The notes under the pieces: generated by a model
The model's database searches: none
What the model was told of the DNA's origin: nothing
The model's input: the letters and a program-made list of their open reading frames with translations, nothing else
Made by a program: the position numbers and the translations under genes
Part shown: in pieces, positions 18,994-30,558 of the stretch
Layout: the number at the start of each line of letters is the position of its first letter
Numbering within the stretch: the first letter of the stretch is position 1
Assembly (NCBI RefSeq): GCF_043950625.1
Contig: NZ_CP171007.1
Source: Alkanindiges sp. WGS2144
GTDB taxonomy: Bacteria; Pseudomonadota; Gammaproteobacteria; Pseudomonadales; Moraxellaceae
DNA: 32,000 nt
Strand: one strand, 5' to 3'

Positions 18994-20886
18994 ATGGAAG
19001 CGTTTCGTCGTTTAATTAGGGGCTGGTTAGGTAAGGTATTACTGGTGCTTTTTCTGACACCACTGGCGTTAGTGGGAATTGAAGGTTACTTTATGGGTGG
19101 AGGCGAAGATAAAGCTGCCATTCAGGTTAATAAAACAAAAATTAGCCCAGCGGTTTTAAATGCTGCTGTAGATAATCAGCATAAGCAGCTTTTAGCACAA
19201 GTTCAGGATGACGCCTCCTTATTAAATGATGCGGCGATCAAAAAATCTGTGATAGACGGCTTGATCGCCCGCACCCTATTGCTTCAGCAAGCCAAAAAAC
19301 TGGGCTTTGAGTTAAGTGATCAACAGATTGCCCAGCTCATTCGTCAGGAGCCCAGCTTTCAAGAGGATGGTAAATACTCGGAAGGTTTATTTCAGGCTTA
19401 TCTGAAAAACTCGGGAGCATCCATGGCTCAGTTATTAAATGAAGTGCGTGAGCAGGTTGCCTTGCGTCAGCTAGCAGGTGGTATTACAGATACTGGCCTG
19501 GTTAGTCAGCAGGATATTACCCGTCTGGCTATCCTGAAAACTGAAAAACGTGATGTACATATTGCCAGTTTACCTTTATCCGGTTTTGGTAAGGACATTC
19601 AGATTACTACCCAGCAAATTACAGACTACTATAATAAAAACAAGGACCAGTATTTAGTACCTGATAATGTTGATGTTGAATATGTTGTATTAAATAGTGC
19701 TTCTTTGGCACCTCAGCTGCAGATCACTGATGCGGATATTCAGGCACAATATCAGGCATTACAGTCTACAAGTGCCAGTGCTGAAGAGCGCCATATTCAG
19801 CATATTCTGATTGAAGTCACTGATAAAATTACGGATGCACAAGCCAAGCAGCAAATTGAAAAAGTGGCTGCCCGCTTAAAGGCAGGTGAAGATTTTGCCA
19901 AGGTGGCACGTGAAGTATCACAGGATGCCGGCTCAGCAGAGAACAATGGTGACCTGGGCTTTTTAGCCAAGGGTAGTTTCCCCGGTGCCTTTGATGACAC
20001 GGCATTTGGTCTGGCGGTTAATCAGGTTTCCAAACCCGTGCGTTCAGATGCGGGTTATCATTTGATTAAGGTATCTGAAATCAGAAAAGATGATGTGGCC
20101 AGTCTGGAATCCCTGCGCCCACAACTGGAAGCACAGGTTCGCCAGAATAAGCTGGATGAGCTATATAGCGAGGTGATTAATCATCTAAATGAAATGGCGG
20201 TAGAAACTGACAGCGTGCAGGAGCTAGCCAGGGTTCAGCATTTGACTGTCAACTCTGCCAAGATGATTACTAAAACCAGCAATACTCCACCATTTAATAA
20301 TGCTAACGTTAAGGCAGCCTTATTCAATGAGGATGTGGTTCAGGGTGACCGCAAAATTTCTACCGGGCTTGAAATAGAGCCGGGCACAACGATGTGGGTT
20401 AAAGTAAATAACTATCATCCTGAGCGTGCCCAGTCGCTGGCTGAGGCAACGGCGCAAATTAAGCAAACCCTTGAGCAACAGGCGCGTCTGGCAAAAGCAA
20501 AGGCCAAGGCCAAAGCTATTGTGGATGGGCTAAAAACCAAAGCACCACAGCAGGTACAACAGGACAATCAGGTTGTTTTTCAGGGTATTGGCGAAGTGAG
20601 CCGTATGAGTGGAGCGCCTTTGGAGCTGGAGCGTACAATTTTCAGGATGGCTAAACCACAAGATGGCAAATGGAGCGCTGACTATTATCAACAGGGTGAC
20701 AATCTGATTGTTGTGGCAGTATCTAAAGTCGTGGCTGGTAATCCGGACAGCTTACAGGCAGAGGAGCGTCAGCAATTATCCAGCACGCTTGCCCGTTTGC
20801 GTGGACAGCAGGAACTGGCGGACTATGTACAGTACCTGCGCTCCAAAGCCAAAATTAAAATCCACGATGCGGATACTAAAAAATAG
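18994..20886 (+). CDS. ppiD: periplasmic chaperone / peptidyl-prolyl isomerase PpiD
   Basis: 630 aa. N-terminal membrane anchor (GKVLLVLFLTPLALVG) and a parvulin-like domain (HIQHILI...GDLGF). hupB-ppiD synteny. Confidence 0.85.
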   Translation: MEAFRRLIRGWLGKVLLVLFLTPLALVGIEGYFMGGGEDKAAIQVNKTKISPAVLNAAVDNQHKQLLAQVQDDASLLNDAAIKKSVIDGLIARTLLLQQAKKLGFELSDQQIAQLIRQEPSFQEDGKYSEGLFQAYLKNSGASMAQLLNEVREQVALRQLAGGITDTGLVSQQDITRLAILKTEKRDVHIASLPLSGFGKDIQITTQQITDYYNKNKDQYLVPDNVDVEYVVLNSASLAPQLQITDADIQAQYQALQSTSASAEERHIQHILIEVTDKITDAQAKQQIEKVAARLKAGEDFAKVAREVSQDAGSAENNGDLGFLAKGSFPGAFDDTAFGLAVNQVSKPVRSDAGYHLIKVSEIRKDDVASLESLRPQLEAQVRQNKLDELYSEVINHLNEMAVETDSVQELARVQHLTVNSAKMITKTSNTPPFNNANVKAALFNEDVVQGDRKISTGLEIEPGTTMWVKVNNYHPERAQSLAEATAQIKQTLEQQARLAKAKAKAKAIVDGLKTKAPQQVQQDNQVVFQGIGEVSRMSGAPLELERTIFRMAKPQDGKWSADYYQQGDNLIVVAVSKVVAGNPDSLQAEERQQLSSTLARLRGQQELADYVQYLRSKAKIKIHDADTKK

Positions 20887-20917: not shown

Positions 20918-20941
20918 AATGATCAATTTTGATGAGTGGGT

Positions 20942-21775
20942 TTATGCTTGTTTGGCGTGTTCCCAAAAATAATAATGCAGTTCATTCGTGGTTTCGGCCA
21001 CAATATTACGGTCACTTTTTAAAATCGTATCAGCACGTTTTTTGCGGGGGTAGGGAAGCTGGGTACTATCACCGTAGCGTGGTAGTTGATTTTCATGGCC
21101 AACCACGAACAGGAATTCATTTAAGCTCATCACTTTTTTGGCATGGTTGGCAAAGCGCAACGTGGCCCGATAGGAAAAGCCTGACTGGTAAAAGCGTTTT
21201 AAAATCTGCGTGCCATCGTTTTTATTTTTAAAGTCCTTAATATTTTCAATCGCTTCATTAAGCTGATGAATTTCATGCAGCAATTTCTGGTTTTCAATAG
21301 GCGCTGGCATATTTTGCTGGAGCATTTCCAGTTGATGCTCAAACCATTCAATTACTTCGTCAGGCTCAACCTTCAGGATTGAGACTGCCGGATTTCTGGT
21401 AAAATTAACAGCAATCACATCCTCAATGATTTGGGGTGTTTCTAGTAGTTTAGGAAATTTCTTTAGCTCAAAACGCGCTACAATTTCCTGGGCCTGTTGT
21501 GAATAATCAGCAATCAGATGCTTGATTTCACCCAGATGATAAGGGGTCAGTAATATCAGGCATTTAAGGCGTGGCTTTTCTAGAGATGTTAGTGACTTGC
21601 TGGCAAAGCGTTCTCCCTGGCTTTTAACAAAGGTATGCATTTTAACAGGAATCTGCTGCGCCTCAGCACGACTGCGTAAATGCATTAGCGCTTGATGATA
21701 GCTATCAAACCATTTTGAAATTTCCAGCCGTAGCAGAGCATGTTGTTCGGCTTGGGTGATTCGTTCTGGACGCAT
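20942..21775 (-). CDS. hypothetical protein; possible very distant Tus (replication terminus-binding) relative
   Basis: 277-aa ORF with its own terminator and an AT-rich upstream region. No family recognised with certainty. Collinear short motifs are shared with E. coli Tus (see findings). Confidence 0.5.
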   Translation of the reverse strand: MRPERITQAEQHALLRLEISKWFDSYHQALMHLRSRAEAQQIPVKMHTFVKSQGERFASKSLTSLEKPRLKCLILLTPYHLGEIKHLIADYSQQAQEIVARFELKKFPKLLETPQIIEDVIAVNFTRNPAVSILKVEPDEVIEWFEHQLEMLQQNMPAPIENQKLLHEIHQLNEAIENIKDFKNKNDGTQILKRFYQSGFSYRATLRFANHAKKVMSLNEFLFVVGHENQLPRYGDSTQLPYPRKKRADTILKSDRNIVAETTNELHYYFWEHAKQA

Positions 21776-21955
21776 AGTTTATCCAATTTTAAAAACTAGC
21801 ATTTTATCATAGTGTAAATTTATAAAAATACCAGAAAAATGTACAATAAATCCTCAAAACCACATTTTCATTTCAAAACAAGTCATCAACAAAGGTTCTA
21901 TAGGGTTAAAGACCAAGACCCAACATAATAAAAGGCCAGATAACCCGGGAGAATA

Positions 21956-22291
21956 ATGATGCAACTCATGTCCAACCTATCAGACTGCACTAAAGCCTGT
22001 ATTGAGTGTTCTATTGCCTGTACCCACTGTGCCGATGCCTGTTTAAAAGAAGAAGATATACAAATGATGCGTCAGTGCATCCAGCGCTGCCTTGAGTGTG
22101 TTGAGCTATGCAAGCTGTGCGCTTCATTTGATATTCGACAATCGGTTTTAAGCGCAAAATTATGTGCTGTATGCGCTGACGCCTGTGAGCGTTGCTATGA
22201 AGAATGTAGCAAGCATAAACATGAGCATTGCCAGATTTGTGCCCAGGCTTGTAAAAAGTGCGCAGAAGAATGCCGTAAGATGGCCGCTTAA
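21956..22291 (+). CDS. Cys-rich four-helix-bundle copper-binding protein (DUF326 / Csp3-like)
   Basis: 111 aa with about 21 Cys in repeated CxxxC/CxxC spacing (CIECSIACTHCADAC, CLECVELCKLC, CAVCADACERC, CQICAQACKKCAEEC). GGGAG RBS. No signal peptide. Confidence 0.75.
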   Translation: MMQLMSNLSDCTKACIECSIACTHCADACLKEEDIQMMRQCIQRCLECVELCKLCASFDIRQSVLSAKLCAVCADACERCYEECSKHKHEHCQICAQACKKCAEECRKMAA

Positions 22292-22350
22292 TTTAAACAT
22301 GGGGCAGGGCGGAGTTAGGCCAATGGTCAACACGCCCTAGTTACCTGTAT

Positions 22351-23217
22351 TTAAAATGTTGCTTCCAGGCCAGCAGGCAGGACGGCAGAACGACCAGATA
22401 ATCGCTCAAAGTCTCTTACTTCATGTGAATAAAAAATATCAATTTCATGCCCATGGCTTGCTTTTAATTCCCTTAAACGTGTCTGGTTGTTTAAGCGTGC
22501 CGGACGGTCTTTTTCCAGCAAGGTTTGGTAAAACTGTAAGCCAGGGGTGCAATAGGATTTATGCAAATCCATTTCTTTGTGATAAAAATAAGCATCTGCG
22601 GCATTAAGTAGCCATTTTTCATCAGACTGAATGGCAATGCCAGCATGCCCATGCGTATGACCAGCTAACGGTACAAGGAGTATTTCTGGCGGCAAGCCCT
22701 CTAGCTCACGAACGGCATCAAAACCATACCAGGCTTCCCCTGTGCCAGTATGGTAGACCTTCCAGTTTTTGCGGTATGACCATTGCTGCGGGCGAAAGCG
22801 CTGGCGATCAAGCCATGTTTTTTGAGAAAGGGCATAATCGCGTTCAATTTGCATCATATGCACAGTAGCGTGGGGAAAATCATCCAATCCACCAGCATGG
22901 TCAAAGTCCAGGTGTGATAGCACAATATGACGTACATCGCGTGGATTATAACCCAGGCGCTCAATTTGCCGGAACGCTGTCATTTCCTCACGAAGTTCTG
23001 GCGGCACCAGAAAACGAAATAACCAGCCCAACCGGGTACGGGGAGAGGCCACATCCCTTAAGCCAAAACCGGTATCTACCAGCACCAAACTATTGGCAGT
23101 TTCTATTAATACACAGGTACAGGTTAGGCGGCCACGCAGTTTGCCATAAGAAAAACCATCCATCAGTGCGCCACCCAATGGACAAGTAGAAATACTATTT
23201 AAATAATGAATACGCAT
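22351..23217 (-). CDS. MBL-fold metallo-hydrolase
   Basis: 288 aa. Metal-binding motif SHLDFDHAGG and a later GHTHGH. Confidence 0.8.
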   Translation of the reverse strand: MRIHYLNSISTCPLGGALMDGFSYGKLRGRLTCTCVLIETANSLVLVDTGFGLRDVASPRTRLGWLFRFLVPPELREEMTAFRQIERLGYNPRDVRHIVLSHLDFDHAGGLDDFPHATVHMMQIERDYALSQKTWLDRQRFRPQQWSYRKNWKVYHTGTGEAWYGFDAVRELEGLPPEILLVPLAGHTHGHAGIAIQSDEKWLLNAADAYFYHKEMDLHKSYCTPGLQFYQTLLEKDRPARLNNQTRLRELKASHGHEIDIFYSHEVRDFERLSGRSAVLPAGLEATF

Positions 23218-23391
23218 GATGTAATCACTTTTAAAATACTAATGGATTTGTTCTAGCATGATGCTTTCCTTGATTCAGTGTTCTATTTTTACGTTTTGTT
23301 ATTTTATGCCTTAAGTCTCTGCTTAAAACCCGGTCACAAGTGCTCAACCTGTTACACTGTCGCTTTTATGCAGCAAACAAGAGGTGATTGC

Positions 23392-23838
23392 ATGTCTTTT
23401 TATGTTTATCTTTCCGGTGAAATTCACACTGGCTGGCGTGAGGAAGTTGAACAGGGTGCCGAGCAAAAAGGGCTGGATATTGTCTTTACTGCACCGGTGA
23501 CACATCATGAGTCAAGTGATGCAGCTGGCGATGTATTGGGCCCGGAAAATCGTGATTTCTGGCGTGATCATAAGTCGGCCAAGGTAAATGCCATTCGTAC
23601 CCAAACCCTGATCCAGCAGGCGGATCTGGTTATTGTGCGTTTTGGCGACAAATACAAGCAGTGGAATGCGGCTTTTGATGCGGGTTACTGTGCTGCCCTG
23701 GGCAAGCCATATATTACCCTGCATGATGAAAGCATTATCCATCCACTAAAAGAAGTAGATGCCAATGCACAGGCCTGGGCAACCAGTACTGATCAAGTGG
23801 TTGAAATTTTATCCTATGTATTAAGCAACAATAGTTAA
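23392..23838 (+). CDS. YtoQ-family (nucleoside 2-deoxyribosyltransferase-like) protein
   Basis: The conserved start is the internal Met (MSFYVYLSGEIHTGWREEV) at 23392, with AGAGG upstream. 148 aa. Confidence 0.65.
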   Translation: MSFYVYLSGEIHTGWREEVEQGAEQKGLDIVFTAPVTHHESSDAAGDVLGPENRDFWRDHKSAKVNAIRTQTLIQQADLVIVRFGDKYKQWNAAFDAGYCAALGKPYITLHDESIIHPLKEVDANAQAWATSTDQVVEILSYVLSNNS

Positions 23839-23901
23839 ATAAATAATAAGAAATCTGGTGTGTTTTTGTTGGGATAGCTGTATGCTGCGCCAGTTTTTAT
23901 T

Positions 23902-23941
23902 TATGATCACTTATAGAAGGAATGTTTTATAAGTGATCATA
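23902..23941. terminator. perfect 14-bp inverted repeat between the convergent ytoQ-like and dsbG-like genes
   Basis: TATGATCACTTATA-gaaggaatgttt-TATAAGTGATCATA. The stem is AT-rich, so this is either a terminator or a protein-binding palindrome. Confidence 0.45.
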
Positions 23942-23967
23942 CGTGCATAGTGACAAACAGTTTAGTT

Positions 23968-24561
23968 TTATTGGTCAAAAATACTGTTTATATCCTTGGG
24001 TAAACCGCTCATGGCCTGTAGTCTGCCTTTTTTGTCTTGCCAGATAATGGCAGGAGTAGAATAAATTCCATAACTCGCCATTAATTGCAGGTTCTTGTTG
24101 AGCTGGCTTTGAATATCAGCCGGAACATTCACCAATGGTTTAATGGCGGTGCGATAATCGACAGCGGAGTTAAACGCTTTAAATGCGCTAGTGGGATCTT
24201 TTGCGCTTAATAAGGCGGCTGCTTTGCCTGCACTGTCTTCTCGAAGAATTCCAACCATAATATGCCTTACCTGAATCTGATTGTTATCCACCCAGGGGCG
24301 AACTTTTTGCCAAAACTGGTGGCAATACGGGCAGTTAGGGTCAGAAAACACATATACAATTTGTTTGGCCTGTTTTGAGCCATCAGCAATCCAGGTGGTT
24401 TTTGATAAATCCTGCCAGATTTTTTTCTCAACAGCCTGTGCATCTTGCTGCTCGGCAGCTTTTGTGTTGGTAGTGGTAGCTGCGGGTTTTGCATGACTTG
24501 CAGGCACATAAGCGGTTGCAATGATTAAACTAGTGAGGAAAGCCTTGCTGTATCTATTCAT
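23968..24561 (-). CDS. periplasmic thiol:disulfide interchange protein, DsbG/ScsC-like (CPYC)
   Basis: 197 aa. Signal peptide (ATAYVPASHA/K) and thioredoxin fold with active site DPNCPYCHQFW. Its start overlaps the stop of the upstream gene (ATGA). Confidence 0.8.
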   Translation of the reverse strand: MNRYSKAFLTSLIIATAYVPASHAKPAATTTNTKAAEQQDAQAVEKKIWQDLSKTTWIADGSKQAKQIVYVFSDPNCPYCHQFWQKVRPWVDNNQIQVRHIMVGILREDSAGKAAALLSAKDPTSAFKAFNSAVDYRTAIKPLVNVPADIQSQLNKNLQLMASYGIYSTPAIIWQDKKGRLQAMSGLPKDINSIFDQ

Positions 24562-25400
24562 GGGAGATCCTTGCTGGGTAAAAGTAGGGGGGTGAGTTGA
24601 TGCAGTAAACTGGCATGACTGAGTTCGCCAACATGGGTACTGACGATTTGACCATGCTGATTAACAAAAAATGTGGTCGGTAGACCCTGGTAACCAAATG
24701 CTGCGCCAGCCTGTGCCTGAGGGTCTAACATTATCTGTTTCAGGTTCAGGTTTTCCCTGGCGAGATAGTGTTCTACCTGCTGCGAGCTTTCACCCTGATT
24801 AATAAAAACAAACTCAATAGCGGGAAACTGCTGTTGTGCAGCAGCCAGCACGAGCATTTCACGATGGCAGGGTGGGCACCAGCTAGCCCATAAATTAATA
24901 ACCGTGGGCTTTTGGCTATATTGATCAAGCTGAATAATTTTATTGTGGCTTAATGAATGTAATTGCAAGGCAGGCAGGTTATTTTGTTGCGGTAAGGCCA
25001 CATGCTTAAGACTGGTCAATGCAATATAAATAGCAAGAAAACCAACACTAAACAACGCCAGCATATTTCTAAGGCTTTTATTCAAAAAATGCAGAACCAG
25101 CAGCCAGATTACCGGAACAATCAATGCATAGAGCCAGGCAAAACCACCGTCACGAATATTTAGGATACTCAGCGGCTGGGCAAAATAAGCCTGATGCTGG
25201 ATTGCTACAAAAATTGCTCTGGCAACCAACATGTAACTTACACTGAGCCAGTGAATATACTTTTCTGCCTGTATAAATTGCTGAACTGAAGTCGCCTATT
25301 TTTTTAGCAAAAAAAGCATCAACAGGTAGGCCAGCACAGCAAAGACAAGTGGCCAGGGCAATATAAAGATGCCCAGATGAATGGCAGAAGTGGTGATCAT
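24558..25400 (-). pseudogene. membrane-anchored TlpA-like thiol-disulfide reductase interrupted by one in-frame TAG (25296..25298)
   Basis: The ATG at 25400 overlaps the dsbD stop (ATGA). The frame reads MITTSAIHLGIFILPWPLVFAVLAYLLMLFLLKK-TAG-ATSVQQFIQAEKYIHWLSVSYMLVARAIF..., continuous with track ORF 24558..25232 (WASWCPPCHREM thioredoxin motif). I checked the frame codon by codon. Confidence 0.75.
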
Positions 25401-27214
25401 GGCAGCCTGCTCATTAAGTCCTTGGTACTAAAACTTCCGGTCAAACGTAAATGCCTTTTTTCCTGACCATCGGCCTGCAAAAATAGAAAGGTAGGCGGTC
25501 CCATGACTTGATACTGATTCAGGATAGCTTGTTGTGATCCGTTAAACTGGGTTAAATCTACTTTAATCCTGCTGTAGGATTGCAGCTTTTGCTGTACTGC
25601 CGGATTGGGCAGGACATATTTTTCAATAGGCTGACAAGCCACGCACCAGTCTGCATAAATATCAATAACCACAGGTTTTTGCGCCTGCCGGGCTTGAGCC
25701 AGTGCACTATTAAATTGTTCAAGGGTAGTTACCCGCTGCCATTGCAAACGGTCAGCGACAGCTAGGGACTGCTTGCTATGCTGATAACTTAACCATGATT
25801 GATAGAACAGGTAAATAGCCGTACCCCCTATGGTAAGGAGCAGGATGATTTGTGCGGCCAGCATTAGTGGTTTTGTTGTCCGCTGTATCGCTGCTTTACT
25901 CCTGATAAAAACATATATCCACAAGGCGGCCATATACAGGGCAATACTGAGATCAAACAGAAAAGGAGCAAGCAAAGGACGGATAAAATATAGTGCAAGA
26001 GCCAGCATAATCCAGCCAAATACATGCTTGATGGTATCCATCCATAAGCCCGGTTTTGGTAAGTATTTGGCACCAAATGTACAGGCAATGATCAGGGGAA
26101 TACCCATACCCAAGCCCAGACAGAACAGTAAGGTTGCGCCTACAACGGCGTCGCCTGAATATGAAATATAAAGTAGGCTGCCAGCAAGTGGTGCACTCAT
26201 ACAGGGAGCGACCAGTAAAGCTGATAAAATACCCATTACCGCGGCGCCCATTAAGGTGCCATTTTTTTGCCGGGCCTGAAGCTGATTAATATAATTGACA
26301 GCCCGTTGTGGTAACAGGTTAAGATCAAATAGCCCAAATAAATTAAGTGCCAGAACAATAAATAACCCACTAAACAAACCAATGATCGCGGGTTGCTGTA
26401 ATGCTCGCTGAAAACCACCGCCTGTACTAGCGATCAATAGACCCAGCAGGGCATATACTGTGGCCATACATAACACAAAAACCAGAGAAATCAGCCAGGC
26501 TTTAATACCGGTTTTATTATTAACAATTAAGCTTGACACAATAGGCAGCATGGGCAGGGAGCAGGGGGTAAAGGCCAGTAAAATGCCCAGGCCAAAGAAT
26601 AATATAGTATTTAAAATAAAGCTGCGCTGCTGAATGCCAGTTGCAATTTTTTGATCTTCTGCCTGTAGAGCGGCCTCTTCTGTAGCTGCCTGCCCGGCAG
26701 AATTAGCCGCTGATGTATGAGTACCAAAGATAGTGGATCCAGAAGAAGAAAAAAGTCCACTCTTATCTTTTGCCTGTGCTGGTATGTGTATCAGTCCTTG
26801 CTTATCAACATAAATATCCCTGGTTATGGGTGGATAGCATAGACCTTCATTGGCACATCCTTGCCAGCGTACCTGATAGGTTTGATTGGCTTGAATGGGG
26901 AGGGTAAAGCCAACCTGATTGTAATAAACTTCTGTTCTGCCGAAATTGGGATCATCTTTTGTTAATGCTGACGGTAGCTCAAGCTTAATAGGCTGCCCAT
27001 CCAGAACTACCTGAAACTGCTGTTGATATAAATAATAGTCATCAGCAATTTTCCAGCTGAGCTGCGCCTCTTGCTCGTTAAGGGAAGACGCCTGAAATAT
27101 AAACGCCTATTCCGGATTTAAAAACCGGCTATCCGCAGCGTATCCCAGAGTAGAAGTCAGGATGGTCAGTAAGAAAGTAATTAATAATTGCCAATGTTTG
27201 TACAAAATCATCAT
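25397..27214 (-). pseudogene. dsbD: thiol:disulfide interchange protein DsbD interrupted by one in-frame TAG (27107..27109)
   Basis: Hand translation from ATG 27214 gives the signal peptide MMILYKHWQLLITFLLTILTSTLGYA, then ADSRFLNPE-TAG-AFIFQ...WQGCANEGLCYPP (DsbD alpha domain). It continues in frame into track ORF 25397..26551 (FTPCSLPM, APCMSAP, C-terminal WCVAC). The TAG sits where E. coli DsbD has Gln (DQAF). Confidence 0.85.
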
Positions 27215-27328
27215 CAAGCCATATTATGAAATTAGAAGCATTGAACCATGCTTGAATTAACGCAATATTAACAGCTTACCCTCAAGCGCCCAGATGAGTA
27301 GTCCAATCATGATTTATAGGAAGCCTAC

Positions 27329-27454
27329 ATGCTGATATTGCTGGTTGAAGATGATCCATTGATTGCCCAGGGCATAATTATGGGATTGCACCTACAAGAT
27401 ATTCAGGTGGAGCATGCCAGCAATGCCAGAGAAGCTTTATATTTCCTGCAATAG
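27329..27454 (+). pseudogene. 5' stump (41 codons) of an OmpR-family response regulator, truncated at the IS junction
   Basis: MLILLVEDDPLIAQGIIMGLHLQDIQVEHASNAREALYFLQ then stop. This is a typical receiver-domain N-terminus (acidic pair DD), lost after about beta2/alpha2. The rest of the gene is not found on the other side of the IS. Confidence 0.75.
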
Positions 27455-27493
27455 ACCTCTTGCGAAAGTAAAAACTGCCTCAATATAGATTTC

Positions 27494-28331
27494 ATGAAAT
27501 ATCAGAAATTAAACCGTTTTTCAGATTCTGAATTCAAGCGCTTGGTTGGTGTACCTCGACCAGTTTTTAGTGAAATGGTCGAAGTTTTAAAAGAAGCAGA
27601 ATCACTTAAAAAGAAATCTGGGCGTCCTCATACTTTAGTTATAGAGGATCAATTATTATTAACACTCAATTACTTACGGAATTACAGCACTCAATTGGAA
27701 TTGGCTGCAAATTACCATATCGCTGAAAGTAATGTGAATCGAACCATTAAAAAGGTTGAAGATGCATTAATGAAATCAAGGCGTTTTACCCTGCCAAAAC
27801 GAAGCATTACAACAGCAGACGAACAATTTAACTGGGTCATTATTGATGCTACAGAATGTTCAATAGAACGCCCGAAAAAAAAATCAGAGTAAGTTCTACA
27901 GTGGTAAAAAGAAGAAACATACGCTAAAAGCCCAAGTGATCTATCATCCGAAGAGTAAACAAATCATAGGAGTAGATATATCTTCTGGCAGTCAGCATGA
28001 TATTAAATTGGCAAGAAAAACAGTAAAAAAATTCAAACATTTTGAATATGTTATGACCGATTTAGGGTACTATGGGTTAGAGCAAGATGGCTTTAAATTA
28101 TTGATGCCAATAAAGAAAAAGAAGAATTTACCCTTATTTGATGTTGAGAAAAAGTACAATAAAATGATTGGAAAAATACGAGTTGTAATCGAACATATTA
28201 ACAGTCAATTGAAAAGATTTAGATGTGAAGTTATTGTTATCTGTATCGGATTTAACATAATATACATTATACGACGTTTTATTGCATTATTACATTGTAT
28301 ATATCAACACGCTAATCTACAGGGTTTCTAG
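27494..28331 (+). CDS. IS5/DDE_Tnp_4-type transposase in two frames (orfA 27494..27892; orfB frame open from 27867 to 28331), joined at an A9 run
   Basis: orfA has an HTH region and the first Asp (VIIDATE). The second frame reads KKNQSKFYSGKKKKHTLKAQV...MTDLGY...VIEHINSQLKRFR (the D, D and E of the DDE triad). Removing one A from the A9 run at 27875..27883 fuses the two frames. Confidence 0.8.
28250..28277 (-). other. dif/pdif-like XerC-XerD recombination site
   Basis: The reverse strand reads ACGTCGTATAA TGTATA TTATGTTAAAT. E. coli dif is GGTGCGCATAA TGTATA TTATGTTAAAT. XerD arm 11/11, central region 6/6, XerC arm 6/11. Confidence 0.7.
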
Positions 28332-29194: not shown

Positions 29195-29728
29195 ATGGCT
29201 AAAAATGCATTACAGGCTCAATTGTTAAAGGCAGGACTGGTAGACAATAAAAAAGCCAAACAGCTTAATAAACAAACTCAACACGCAAAGCGCACAGGTG
29301 AACAATCTGATGCTGAAGTCAAAAAAGCACTAGCAGAAGCTCAGGCAAAAAAACTGGAAAAAGATCAGCAGCTTAATCAGGAAAAACAACGCCTGCTAGA
29401 GGAAAAAACTTTAAGGGCTAATATTGTGCAAATGATTAAGCAACACCAATTGAGTGATACATCTGGTGATAGCCCTTATCAATTTATTGATCATGGTAAA
29501 ATTAAAAAAATTTATATTACCTCCAAATTATACGACCAAGTAGTTGCCGGTCATGTGGCCATCGTCCGTACAGAAGAAAGTTATGCCCTGCTACCTCGCC
29601 CATTAGCTAAACGTATTGATGAGAAAATGACAGGTTTTGTAGTTGTGGCAAATGATAAATCTGATCAGCAGGTAGATGAAGATGATCCTTATGCAGCGTA
29701 TGTGATTCCTGATGATTTAATGTGGTAA
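29195..29728 (+). CDS. DUF2058 (YaiL-like) protein
   Basis: 177 aa. MAKNALQAQLLKAGLVDNKKAKQLNKQ..., Lys-rich N-terminus and acidic C-terminus (DEDDPYAAYVIPDDLMW). Confidence 0.65.
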   Translation: MAKNALQAQLLKAGLVDNKKAKQLNKQTQHAKRTGEQSDAEVKKALAEAQAKKLEKDQQLNQEKQRLLEEKTLRANIVQMIKQHQLSDTSGDSPYQFIDHGKIKKIYITSKLYDQVVAGHVAIVRTEESYALLPRPLAKRIDEKMTGFVVVANDKSDQQVDEDDPYAAYVIPDDLMW

Positions 29729-29862: not shown

Positions 29863-30558
29863 CTACTGAACGGACTGGTATATATCTATCAGTGTTTGTT
29901 GTGGATTATCTGCTTTGGTAATTGGACGCCCAATGACCATGTAATCTACCCCATCCTGCATTGCTTGCTGCGGTGTTACAATCCGTTTTTGATCATCAAC
30001 CGCACTATCAACTGGTCGTATCCCAGGCGTAACCAGCAAAAAGTCTGACCCTAGCTGTTCCCGAAGCATTTTTGCCTCCTGAGCGGAACATACTACCCCG
30101 TCTACTCCGCAGGTTTTGGCTAATGTCGCCAATTTGGTCACTTGCTGAGCAGCACTTACTTGAATACCCAGTTCACTCAAGTCCTGATCACTCATTGATG
30201 TCAGTACAGTAACCGCGATTAAGTGTGTGTTATAATTGCCTTGCTTAAGTCGCTCAACAGTGGTTTCCATCATTTGACGGCCACCACTTGCATGTATGTT
30301 CACCATCCATATACCCAGATCAGCTGCGGCTAGTACTGCCTGCGCGGTAGTATTGGGAATATCATGAAACTTAAGGTCAAGAAAAACCTCAAACTGCCGT
30401 TGGTGTAAATCCTGAATAATTTGTGGGCCAAGCCGGGTAAATAGTTCCTTGCCTACTTTAAGTCGGCATAATTTTGGATCCATTTGATCAGCCAGGCTCA
30501 AGGCATCATGCTGGTTATTGACATCAAGGGCAACGATAATACTCAAAATTAAATCCAA
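29863..30558 (-). CDS. pyrF: orotidine-5'-phosphate decarboxylase
   Basis: 231 aa. [15 protein letters not shown] and catalytic-lysine context. The apparent start is TTG at 30558, and no in-frame ATG lies nearby. Confidence 0.9.

Follow-up and report, generated by a model that had tools for sequence, protein, structure and literature searches.

A dif site of Alkanindiges seemingly placed within a transposase gene is very probably the chromosome's main dif, set in a rearranged terminus

The window considered here is a stretch of 32,000 nucleotides of DNA from Alkanindiges sp. WGS2144 (contig NZ_CP171007.1), extended in several of the searches by the next 7.7 kb, to 39.7 kb. A DsbD encoded in the window agrees with a protein of this strain at 100% over a 384-aa query and at 99.8% over its full 567 aa. 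The genes that surround the site of interest belong to the core chromosome (the isc operon, ppiD, pyrF, ihfB and rpsA). Between a ppiD-like gene and a DUF2058 gene, beyond which pyrF, lapA, ihfB and rpsA lie on the minus strand, come three elements in close succession (Table 1). The first is the beginning of a response-regulator gene, which matches Pfam Response_reg weakly, under the curated cut-off, over profile positions 1-38. An insertion sequence (IS) with the Pfam domains HTH_Tnp_4 and DDE_Tnp_1 interrupts it, and an A-run frameshift site near 27876 stands between the two transposase frames. Finally, crossed by the second of those frames, there is a 28-nt sequence that resembles dif.

Table 1. 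Features at and around the dif-like site, with positions in the window
Feature	Position	Strand	Remarks
ppiD-like gene	18994-20886	plus	Pfam; synteny anchor on the XerD side, directly before dif in L017 and L134
KOPS-like octamers GGGNAGGG, further copies	7310, 21048, 22302 (starts)	plus	
KOPS-like octamer GGGNAGGG	26552-26559	plus	points toward dif
KOPS-like octamer GGGNAGGG, nearest to dif	26897-26904	plus	points toward dif
Response-regulator gene, 5' fragment	27329-27453	plus	41 codons; cut by the IS left end at a TA target
ISAba27-like IS of the IS5 family, 3'-truncated	27454-28223	plus	positions 1-770 of 881
Left inverted repeat of the IS		plus	16 bp, GACCTCTTGCGAAAGT; intact
Canonical right end of the IS (last 111 bp)			terminates ...ACTTTCGCAAGAGGTC
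Transposase frames	27494-28331	plus	orfA 27494-27892; orfB-frame ORF 27936-28331
Terminal relic of a tyrosine-recombinase mobile element	28224-28249	minus	26 nt; directly abuts the XerD arm
Main chromosomal dif (very probable)	28250-28277	minus	XerC arm, 6-bp central region, XerD arm: ACGTCGTATAA TGTATA TTATGTTAAAT
XerD-binding arm (predicted)	28250-28260	minus	TTATGTTAAAT; toward the IS/ppiD side; 11/11 to E. coli and Acinetobacter dif
Central (strand-exchange) region	28261-28266	minus	TGTATA; as in E. coli dif and Acinetobacter main dif
XerC-binding arm (predicted)	28267-28277	minus	ACGTCGTATAA; toward DUF1275/DUF2058/pyrF
DUF2058 gene	29195-29728	plus	Pfam; anchor on the XerC side, beside dif in L017, L025, L134 and L135

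Read directly from the minus strand, the 28-mer at 28250-28277 is ACGTCGTATAATGTATATTATGTTAAAT, which has the 11-6-11 architecture of a main dif and the proteobacterial consensus. The original prediction had matched it to E. coli dif at 23 of 28 positions, and the count is reproduced arm by arm: 11/11 in the XerD arm, 6/6 in the spacer and 6/11 in the XerC arm. The match to the Acinetobacter-type consensus ATTTCGTATAA-TGTATA-TTATGTTAAAT is closer (26/28), and a TGTATA spacer is typical for the main dif of Acinetobacter (PMC10132070 Table 5). A scan with E. coli dif that allows up to three mismatches finds nothing, the site having five, and the Acinetobacter-type consensus was used instead.

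Might so short a sequence have come about by chance? The sole point in favor of this is the AT-richness of the surroundings, about 35% GC. Against it, no match to the Acinetobacter-type consensus with three or fewer mismatches turned up in 100 dinucleotide-preserving shuffles. Moreover, the 24-nt core would be expected some 1e-9 times in 64 kb, by estimate, and the position of the site is kept in relatives. Chance resemblance is so improbable that it may be neglected. The site also stands alone, as first reported for the window: neither the 28 kb on its left nor the 11 kb on its right contains another dif-like site. A scan for promoters and terminators around dif yielded nothing exceeding the shuffled expectation.

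Then there is the odd location. The site had been described as embedded in the frame of an IS transposase, and it is true that the orfB-frame ORF runs across it. The IS itself, though, ends at position 770 of 881, and dif begins 26 bp beyond. Up to that break the IS is 99.6% identical to a copy on the A. lwoffii plasmid pALWED3.6 and about 95% identical to ISAba27. Past it, identity to the 881-bp reference falls to 28/111 (25%), the random level. What is missing is the last 111 bp, comprising the right inverted repeat and 30 codons, and no such right end was found in the window or its 7.7-kb extension. The junction between IS and flank is identical in an independent short-read assembly, SRR30887707. 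The same assembly was the only place where exact matches to three proteins of the window were found. Its contigs break at the IS, and no sister strain free of the IS came to light.

One of the readings offered at the outset was that a pdif-like site is carried by the IS or was inserted into it. That the ORF spanning dif is continuous with the transposase frame would favor dif as part of the IS, whether borne by the canonical element or inserted within the transposase gene. But none of the 80 plasmid records with this IS matched past the break, and 28223 is the endpoint in all 30 of the matches listed; no plasmid record covered 80% of the query. Each of the two full 881-bp copies aligned goes on to end in a normal right inverted repeat, and neither has a dif-like site. 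This alignment of IS copies, a check proposed with the original prediction, places 28224-28277 outside the canonical 881-bp element. Furthermore, from 28222 onward the window shows homology to the flanks of dif in other genomes, where there is no IS. An IS-borne dif is thus exceedingly improbable.

The reading frame tells the same story from the side of the protein. The transposase matches in Pfam and NCBIfam end at residues 95-97 of the ORF, about two residues before the junction, and the last 36 codons (from about 28224) cross the junction, the relic and dif. The C-terminus had been thought to retain a resemblance to the end of the family. It does not: the canonical transposase ends ...KRFRILSERYRNRRKRFGLRINLIAALVNRMNLQ, and the tail in the window, CEVIVIC...RRF...CIYQ, reads as translation that has run on into foreign DNA. 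This copy of the IS is dead, with an ORF that simply continues through dif. "A dif inside a transposase" is an artefact of reading through a truncated IS.

The site can be followed in other genomes. Each of 120 proteobacterial loci that were fetched has exactly one copy of the 24-nt core, a sample in which the inner XerC-arm bases CGTATAA were set by the search pattern. The outer four nucleotides of the XerC arm vary freely over these 120 loci, with 31 different 4-mers, and ACGT, the outer bases in Alkanindiges, is absent among these 120 other sites; the XerC arms of the nearest relatives are ATGTCGTATAA or GTGTCGTATAA. In three complete chromosomes the core lies at 50.3-51.2% of the length. 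The exact 28-mer had no match in metagenome contigs, and a 26-mer query of such contigs led to 11 relatives. Relatives have sites identical at 27/28 positions (loci L025 and L007, uncultured Moraxellaceae) and 26/28 (L017).

Gene order is kept as well. In L017 and L134 it is ppiD - dif - DUF2058, with the arms oriented as in the window. Locus L135 has dif - DUF2058, and L025 has DUF2058 - dif - pyrF - ihfB - rpsA. The TGTATA-type sites of these four loci thus occupy the orthologous position, between ppiD and DUF2058 or pyrF.

Signals consistent with a terminus are found at the same place. Over the 39.7 kb examined, cumulative GC skew reaches its maximum at 29,925, which is 1.65 kb from dif; the skew is +0.064 in the 10 kb on the left of the site and changes sign to -0.036 in the 10 kb on its right. 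The octamer GGGNAGGG occurs to the left of dif five times in forward and never in reverse orientation, and to the right it does not occur. The 7-mer GGGNAGG occurs on the left 11 times forward and twice reverse, and on the right never forward and twice reverse. The pattern agrees with convergence on dif, though counts in both cases are small, the KOPS motif is an assumed one for the host genus, and its G-richness is partly confounded with GC skew.

It is conceivable that all this describes a secondary, pdif-like site, brought by a dif module or by integrated plasmid DNA, with the true site of dimer resolution elsewhere. Extra dif-like sites are frequent in Acinetobacter chromosomes (PMC6449649, PMC12907356), and the flank on the XerD side is common to pdif sites of plasmids. 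However, such extra sites and pdif differ from dif1 chiefly in the spacer, and the spacer in Alkanindiges is that of dif1, TGTATA. No inversely oriented partner, as in a pdif module, exists in the 39.7 kb; the neighbors are core chromosome genes and not DNA derived from plasmids; the only TGTATA site of the relatives is at the same locus; and GC skew turns here. A secondary site is very unlikely. A plasmid origin of the region from 20.9 to 27.5 kb was also considered and rejected, the only plasmid matches being distant ones, at about 70%.

I propose that this Alkanindiges strain has its main chromosomal dif (dif1) in the 28-mer and that the apparent embedding of the site in a transposase gene is the result of a rearrangement. 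I hold this reading, which rests on site type, synteny, GC skew and KOPS polarity over 39.7 kb, to be very probable. It agrees with the first of the readings originally offered, in which the chromosomal dif marks the terminus and an IS has undergone rearrangement about it. By analogy with E. coli and A. baumannii, XerD would bind TTATGTTAAAT and XerC ACGTCGTATAA at the replication terminus, KOPS-like motifs would guide FtsK to activate XerD, and strand exchange across TGTATA would resolve chromosome dimers at division. The XerC and XerD of A. baumannii do recombine dif, in a manner dependent on FtsK (PMC11705084).

The history has two steps. On the XerD side of dif, an ISAba27-like IS entered a TA within the response-regulator gene. 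A later rearrangement then joined position 770 of the IS to DNA that begins 26 bp short of the XerD arm. Most simply this was a deletion by illegitimate recombination at a microhomology of 2 bp, the bases GA at 28222-28223 being common to the IS and the relic. Such a deletion would have taken the right end of the IS, the remaining part of the regulator gene and any DNA in between. Inversion or translocation would serve too, if the missing end of the IS or the other half of the regulator sits elsewhere in the genome. On this account dif appears inside a transposase gene because the deletion joined a truncated IS to DNA 26 bp from the site. Selection would presumably spare those rearrangements that stop short of dif.

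The 26 bp left between the IS and the XerD arm are a remnant of mobile DNA. They match CCGATACACCTAACAATAACTTCATA at 23 of 26 positions (chance probability about 9e-11), and in A. kookii, Acinetobacter sp. BSP-28, A. junii and several plasmids CCGATACACCTAACAATAACTTCATA likewise stands at zero offset from the XerD arm. This is the end of an element that begins with two tandem tyrosine-recombinase genes, followed by an ORF of 509 aa. On plasmids that end abuts the XerD arms of pdif sites, and in three species of Acinetobacter it abuts that of the main dif. The pdif sites next to it have five spacers (tataga, tgtacg, tattga, tagaga and cgtaca) and various XerC arms. In A. kookii the flank extends for 1.1 kb at 92% identity to plasmid DNA that abuts the XerD arms of pdif. 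No genes of the element were found in the window or the next 7.7 kb, and its far end, as sought in pABA-2f10, showed no convincing terminal inverted repeat. The surviving 26 bp are the tip of such an element, formerly docked at the XerD arm. With DNA of this origin as its XerD flank, the site has had dealings with mobile DNA.

How did the tip come to be there? Possibly the site is a hybrid, formed when the chromosomal dif recombined with a plasmid-borne site or with one on an integrative element, by Xer or by the element's own integrase, as in IMEX. Only the XerC arm with its flank would then be native, and the XerD arm with its flank would derive from mobile DNA. A hybrid would still serve as dif and is compatible with the best explanation. 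Several observations point this way: the stub, like its longer counterpart in A. kookii, matches plasmid DNA abutting pdif XerD arms; the matching pdif sites differ in spacer and XerC arm; conservation begins exactly at the XerD arm, as expected for exchange within the spacer; and the closest relatives (L017, L025 and L134) do not have the relic flank. On the other side, the lack of a second dif-like site in the 39.7 kb means that no integrated element is bounded there. In addition, the tip lies beside degenerate, non-dif sequence with only a XerD-like arm at three loci (L141, L143 and L144), which targeted insertion explains equally well. A hybrid origin is therefore conceivable but rather doubtful. 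The idea of a Xer scar, the third of the original readings, has only indirect support: the junction of IS and flank lies off the region of Xer crossover and so is no Xer scar, but the 26-bp stub does stem from an element that regularly abuts XerD arms.

A more general idea, which I offer tentatively and with less than even confidence, is that the relic belongs to a mobile-element family with no known description, whose members dock flush at XerD arms. Among its targets would be the main dif in at least four lineages of Moraxellaceae (A. kookii, Acinetobacter sp. BSP-28, A. junii and Alkanindiges), and it would be common on large Acinetobacter plasmids. A search of the literature, not an exhaustive one, found no description of an integrase element adjacent to pdif. 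If the idea is right, the main dif exchanges with plasmid DNA linked to pdif, against the usual view that dif1 avoids the traffic of dif modules. The terminus would retain relics of the visits of elements, only those deletions surviving that spare dif. Should the integrase-pair element hold up, it bears on the link between plasmids and chromosome through dif/pdif traffic of the Acinetobacter type.

The Alkanindiges site is, in the end, very probably an ordinary dif in a rearranged terminus, and the relic beside it is modestly interesting. For annotation, the result would fix the dif, and hence the terminus, of the Alkanindiges chromosome. It also illustrates, in a small way, the region near dif as a graveyard of mobile DNA in which the 28-bp site is kept intact.

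It remains to set the locus beside known systems. Insertion sequences that target dif are known from the IS1202 family (ISAjo2, ISAba71 and ISApi2), and there too an IS lies beside a Moraxellaceae dif. Those copies are intact and 1.5 kb long; they have 5-bp duplications at their ends, a single orientation and a constant distance of 5 bp to the XerC arm (PMC10132070). The IS in Alkanindiges belongs instead to the IS5 family. It is found 26 bp from the XerD arm, on that side of dif, and is joined at an internal position. A dif-targeted insertion of the IS1202 kind was rejected for this truncated copy; dif was not its target.

The relic was compared with IMEX (CTX-phi, TLC and the gonococcal genetic island) and with elements carrying multiple integrases (SE, GInt, RIT and Tn554-like; PMC10214605). 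Like them, its source has tandem tyrosine-recombinase genes and an end flush against the XerD arms of dif or pdif. Unlike IMEX, it has left just 26 nt in the window and has a single flanking site; its membership of a family is that of a candidate. An IMEX integrated at dif, which calls for a pair of attL and attR, was rejected, the 39.7 kb holding one dif-like site only. The pdif sites of Acinetobacter plasmids (Re27/pXerC-D) share the consensus of the arms, and several of them have the 26-nt flank on the XerD side. They occur, however, as inversely oriented pairs around modules and have other spacers, whereas the Alkanindiges site is a lone one among core genes of the chromosome and has the spacer of dif1.

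The E. coli dif, GGTGCGCATAA-TGTATA-TTATGTTAAAT, on which XerCD and FtsK act, matches perfectly in the XerD arm and spacer, and KOPS-like GGGNAGGG motifs appear to converge on the Alkanindiges site likewise. The differences, five in number, are in the XerC arm, and the function of the Alkanindiges site would be the same by inference. Closer is dif1 of A. baumannii, TGTTCGTATAA-tgtata-TTATGTTAAAT (PMC10132070, PMC6449649), identical at 25 of 28 positions. The Alkanindiges site differs from it in the host, in the outer ACGT variant of the XerC arm and in having a relic and a truncated IS as its XerD flank. It shares with it the 11-6-11 layout, the XerD arm, the spacer, the inner XerC arm CGTATAA and, probably, the location at the terminus.

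Read on the minus strand, the dif site of the window is ACGTCGTATAA-TGTATA-TTATGTTAAAT. It agrees with E. coli dif at 23 of 28 positions (11/11 in the XerD arm, 6/6 in the spacer, 6/11 in the XerC arm), as the original prediction had counted, and with the Acinetobacter-type ATTTCGTATAA-TGTATA-TTATGTTAAAT at 26 of 28. A search with the latter pattern, allowing up to three mismatches, found this one site in the window and no match in 100 dinucleotide-preserving shuffles (0/100). Given these counts and shuffles, the resemblance was read correctly and lies far beyond chance in 32 kb. The site was also rightly called single, since a looser scan for XerC/XerD-like 11-6-11 sites gave no further candidate within the window.

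What kind of dif is it? Five Acinetobacter chromosomal dif sites combine a variable XerC arm with the spacer tgtata, and four of the five carry TTATGTTAAAT, the A. indicus site ending in C; that of A. baumannii is TGTTCGTATAA-tgtata-TTATGTTAAAT (Harmer, Pong & Hall 2023, PMC10132070, Table 5). A sixth, from Acinetobacter sp. CP026616, has ggtgta with TTATGTTAATT (PMC10132070), so the spacer rule is not absolute. Plasmid pdif sites, both those in that Table 5 and those examined here, have other spacers. In the account of Mindlin et al. (2019, PMC6449649), dif1 follows the proteobacterial consensus, and secondary sites differ mainly in the centre; the centre of the window site is of the dif1 type. 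A scan of one genome per species for the 24-nt core CGTATAATGTATATTATGTTAAAT gave at least 120 loci, with exactly one core match in each and 31 different 4-mers at the outer bases of the XerC arm. Three of these records are complete isolate chromosomes, and their sites fall at 50.3%, 51.1% and 51.2% of the length.

The closest sites among the matches listed, ATGTCGTATAA... and GTGTCGTATAA..., come from uncultured Moraxellaceae. In the comparison loci L017 and L134, isc genes are followed by phasin, hupB, ppiD, dif and DUF2058, and the two arms are oriented as they are in the window, XerD towards ppiD and XerC towards DUF2058. A third locus, L135, has dif followed by DUF2058, and a fourth, L025 from a Moraxellaceae MAG, has DUF2058, dif, pyrF, ihfB and rpsA. 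The window runs from ppiD through about 7.5 kb of accessory genes and the IS remnant to dif, DUF1275, DUF2058, pyrF, lapA, ihfB and rpsA; for the rest it consists of core chromosomal genes (glnD, purT, ychF, the isc-hsc operon, ppiD, pyrF, ihfB, rpsA). From the gene order shared with these four loci, the window site occupies the conserved dif locus of its lineage.

Two features of this neighbourhood deserve separate mention. In L025 (4974-6453), compared with the window, L017 and L134, DUF2058 and dif are turned round as a pair with respect to pyrF and to the isc/phasin side, which points to an inversion with the dif region at its centre. The window, for its part, has about 6.5 kb of additional genes separating ppiD from the IS, which L017 and L134 lack between ppiD and dif. 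They form a lineage-specific accessory cluster beside the terminus, and its relatives on Acinetobacter plasmids reach an identity of only about 70-80%. The DsbD encoded there is 100% identical over a 384-aa query, and 99.8% over the full 567 aa, to a protein encoded on a 2.38-Mb contig of Alkanindiges sp. WGS2144, a member of the Moraxellaceae. The dsbD gene is apparently frameshifted near 27100: the signal-peptide codons (MILYKHWQLLITFLLTILTSTLGYAADSRFLNPE) lie in another frame than the rest of the 567-aa reading frame, which the NCBI annotation gives a non-standard start. Either the gene is a pseudogene or the sequence contains an error.

Terminus signals were measured on the window plus a 7.7-kb extension from a Logan contig. 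Over the roughly 40 kb covered, cumulative GC skew peaks at 29,925, 1.65 kb from dif, the skew being +0.064 in the 10 kb to the left of dif and -0.036 in the 10 kb to the right. GGGNAGGG occurs five times, always forward and always left of dif; the GGGNAGG 7-mer has 11 forward and 2 reverse copies left of dif and, right of it, 2 copies, both reverse. Skew and KOPS-like signals over this distance agree with a terminus here. The 28-mer is very probably the main chromosomal dif, and of the readings first offered, a chromosomal dif with an IS rearranged around it was the right one, as judged by the type of site, the synteny of relatives, the local GC skew and the KOPS polarity. A secondary or pdif-type site is unlikely, given the dif1-type spacer, the core-chromosome context, the synteny of relatives, the local turn in skew, the lack of a partner site in the window and an accessory region left of dif that is not plasmid-like. 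The 28-mer is a new sequence variant, not previously pointed out in this species, of a known kind of site, the dif1 of Moraxellaceae, whose family and mode of action are established. Each recombinase, XerD and XerC, binds its own arm, FtsK directed by KOPS activates XerD, and exchange across the 6-bp centre resolves chromosome dimers. By analogy, the window site would work in the same way. In A. baumannii, as in E. coli, the XerC/XerD-FtsK mechanism has been demonstrated (PMC11705084).

Why, then, did the site appear to be embedded in a transposase? The IS region resembles ISAba27-like IS5-family elements in 78 Acinetobacter records of the plasmid collection, where no record covers 80% of the IS-region query and the matches end at query position 784 (window 28223) in 30/30 rows among those listed. 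The canonical IS, defined from two reference copies aligned with the window, is 881 bp long, with 16-bp terminal inverted repeats (GACCTCTTGCGAAAGT) and TA on both flanks. The window follows it for 770 bp; thereafter identity is 28/111, and the right inverted repeat is absent anywhere in the window. The canonical transposase ends in ...KRFRILSERYRNRRKRFGLRINLIAALVNRMNLQ, the window ORF runs on as ...KRFRCEVIVICIGFNIIYIIRRFIALLHCIYQHANLQGF, and Pfam and NCBIfam transposase matches stop at residues 95-97 of the second ORF, about 2 residues before the junction. The likeness of the RRF...CIYQ tail to the family C-terminus, as first proposed, thus finds no support, and the tail is read-through of unrelated DNA; it is the truncation of the IS that makes the site look embedded. 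That the site belongs to the IS is refuted, since plasmid matches in the rows listed end at window 28223 and homology to both aligned copies stops at IS position 770.

The best match to the IS is in pALWED3.6, from a permafrost strain of A. lwoffii (L001:1503-2383), and its 99.6% identity to the remnant points to recent exchange of mobile DNA between Alkanindiges and Acinetobacter. The IS/flank junction is real, because a contig of the independent Logan short-read assembly SRR30887707 begins with 30 nt of the IS and from there is identical to the window across the junction and dif and further on. That assembly breaks on either side of the IS, which suggests more than one copy of the IS in that genome. 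The junction with the 26-nt relic, …TTTAGA/TGTGAAG…, is internal to the IS and 26 bp from the XerD arm, with 2 bp (GA) common to both partners, so it is neither a transposition end nor a Xer crossover. Deletion by illegitimate recombination would be the simplest account; an inversion is a possible alternative.

The relic matches CCGATACACCTAACAATAACTTCATA at 23 of 26 positions (chance probability at a fixed offset about 9e-11), and CCGATACACCTAACAATAACTTCATA lies flush with the XerD arm of TGTATA-type chromosomal dif in A. kookii (L109) and Acinetobacter sp. BSP-28 (L045), more loosely in A. junii (L064). It is likewise flush with the XerD arm of pdif sites on plasmids, among which five spacers and differing XerC arms occur. 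The A. kookii homology to plasmid pXBB1-8 extends for 1.1 kb at 92%, spanning a gene annotated as a site-specific integrase. An intact version, carried by pABA-2f10, opens with a tandem pair of tyrosine-recombinase genes (449 and 526 aa), after which comes a 509-aa ORF; by tblastn, 98 Acinetobacter plasmid records contain the first gene of the pair. The tip of this integrase-pair element, CCGATACACCTAACAATAACTTCAT, is flush against a XerD arm in all the copies examined, whether of pdif sites (five spacers), of the main dif of three Acinetobacter species or, on three related plasmids, of one degenerate site with only a XerD-like arm (TTATGACAATT). A limited literature search found no description of this adjacency. 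The flank is absent from the window's closest relatives, L017, L025 and L134, so that in the window these 26 nt are what is left of DNA gained by horizontal transfer; the 39.7 kb of window and extension contain nothing else of the element. The integrase-pair element is the only less ordinary component here. The idea of a Xer scar fails for the IS junction. Yet XerD arm and relic may well have reached dif together by recombination with mobile DNA, which is compatible with a dif that still works.

Coordinates of features in the window and of related sites in comparison loci
Feature	Coordinates	Basis or content
Accessory cluster	20929-27453	DUF326 copper-binding-like protein, MBL-fold hydrolase, YtoQ, DsbG-like and TlpA-like thioredoxins, DsbD, truncated response regulator
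Apparent dsbD frameshift	27090-27230, minus strand	
Response-regulator gene		interrupted after codon 41 by intact left IS end
IS remnant, canonical positions 1-770	27454-28223	alignment to two reference copies
Transposase ORFs	27494-27892 and 27936-28331	HTH_Tnp_4 and DDE_Tnp_1/DDE_Tnp_4 domains
Relic	28224-28249	CCGATACAGATAACAATAACTTCACA, read outward from XerD arm
dif site	28250-28277	plus strand ATTTAACATAATATACATTATACGACGT
Integrase-pair element and its relic	L140:5849-10457 (pABA-2f10); L109:5058-6340 (A. kookii); L126, L127, L128, L141, L143, L144, L147; window 28224-28249	
Sites with the agaatatccaagactgtgg... flank	L039:7370-7397; L051:1615-1642; L066:2283-2310 and 1002-1029; L046:888-915	

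Other arrangements occur around dif in the family. Several Acinetobacter species have in common another conserved XerD-side flank (agaatatccaagactgtgg...), and in them the main dif has a degenerate, inversely oriented dif-like site (e.g. TTTCGGCATAA cgtata TTATGTTCATT) about 95-100 bp away. In another Moraxellaceae MAG (L007:6418-6445) a second dif-like site, ACATCGCATAA tgcagc CTATGTTAAAT, lies about 430 bp from the TGTATA-type dif. The dif-hunting elements of the IS1202 family sit 5 bp from the XerC arm (PMC10132070), and the window IS is not one of them. In A. junii CIP 64.5 (L064:640-703) the chromosomal dif has a conserved …ttgggcttaca 6 bp away from its XerC arm; the motif recurs at the same position beside plasmid pdif sites, and on pABA-2f10 an ISNCY-family transposase gene follows about 120 bp further out. 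This layout resembles what Harmer et al. (2023, PMC10132070) described in A. junii for an element of the IS1202 family.
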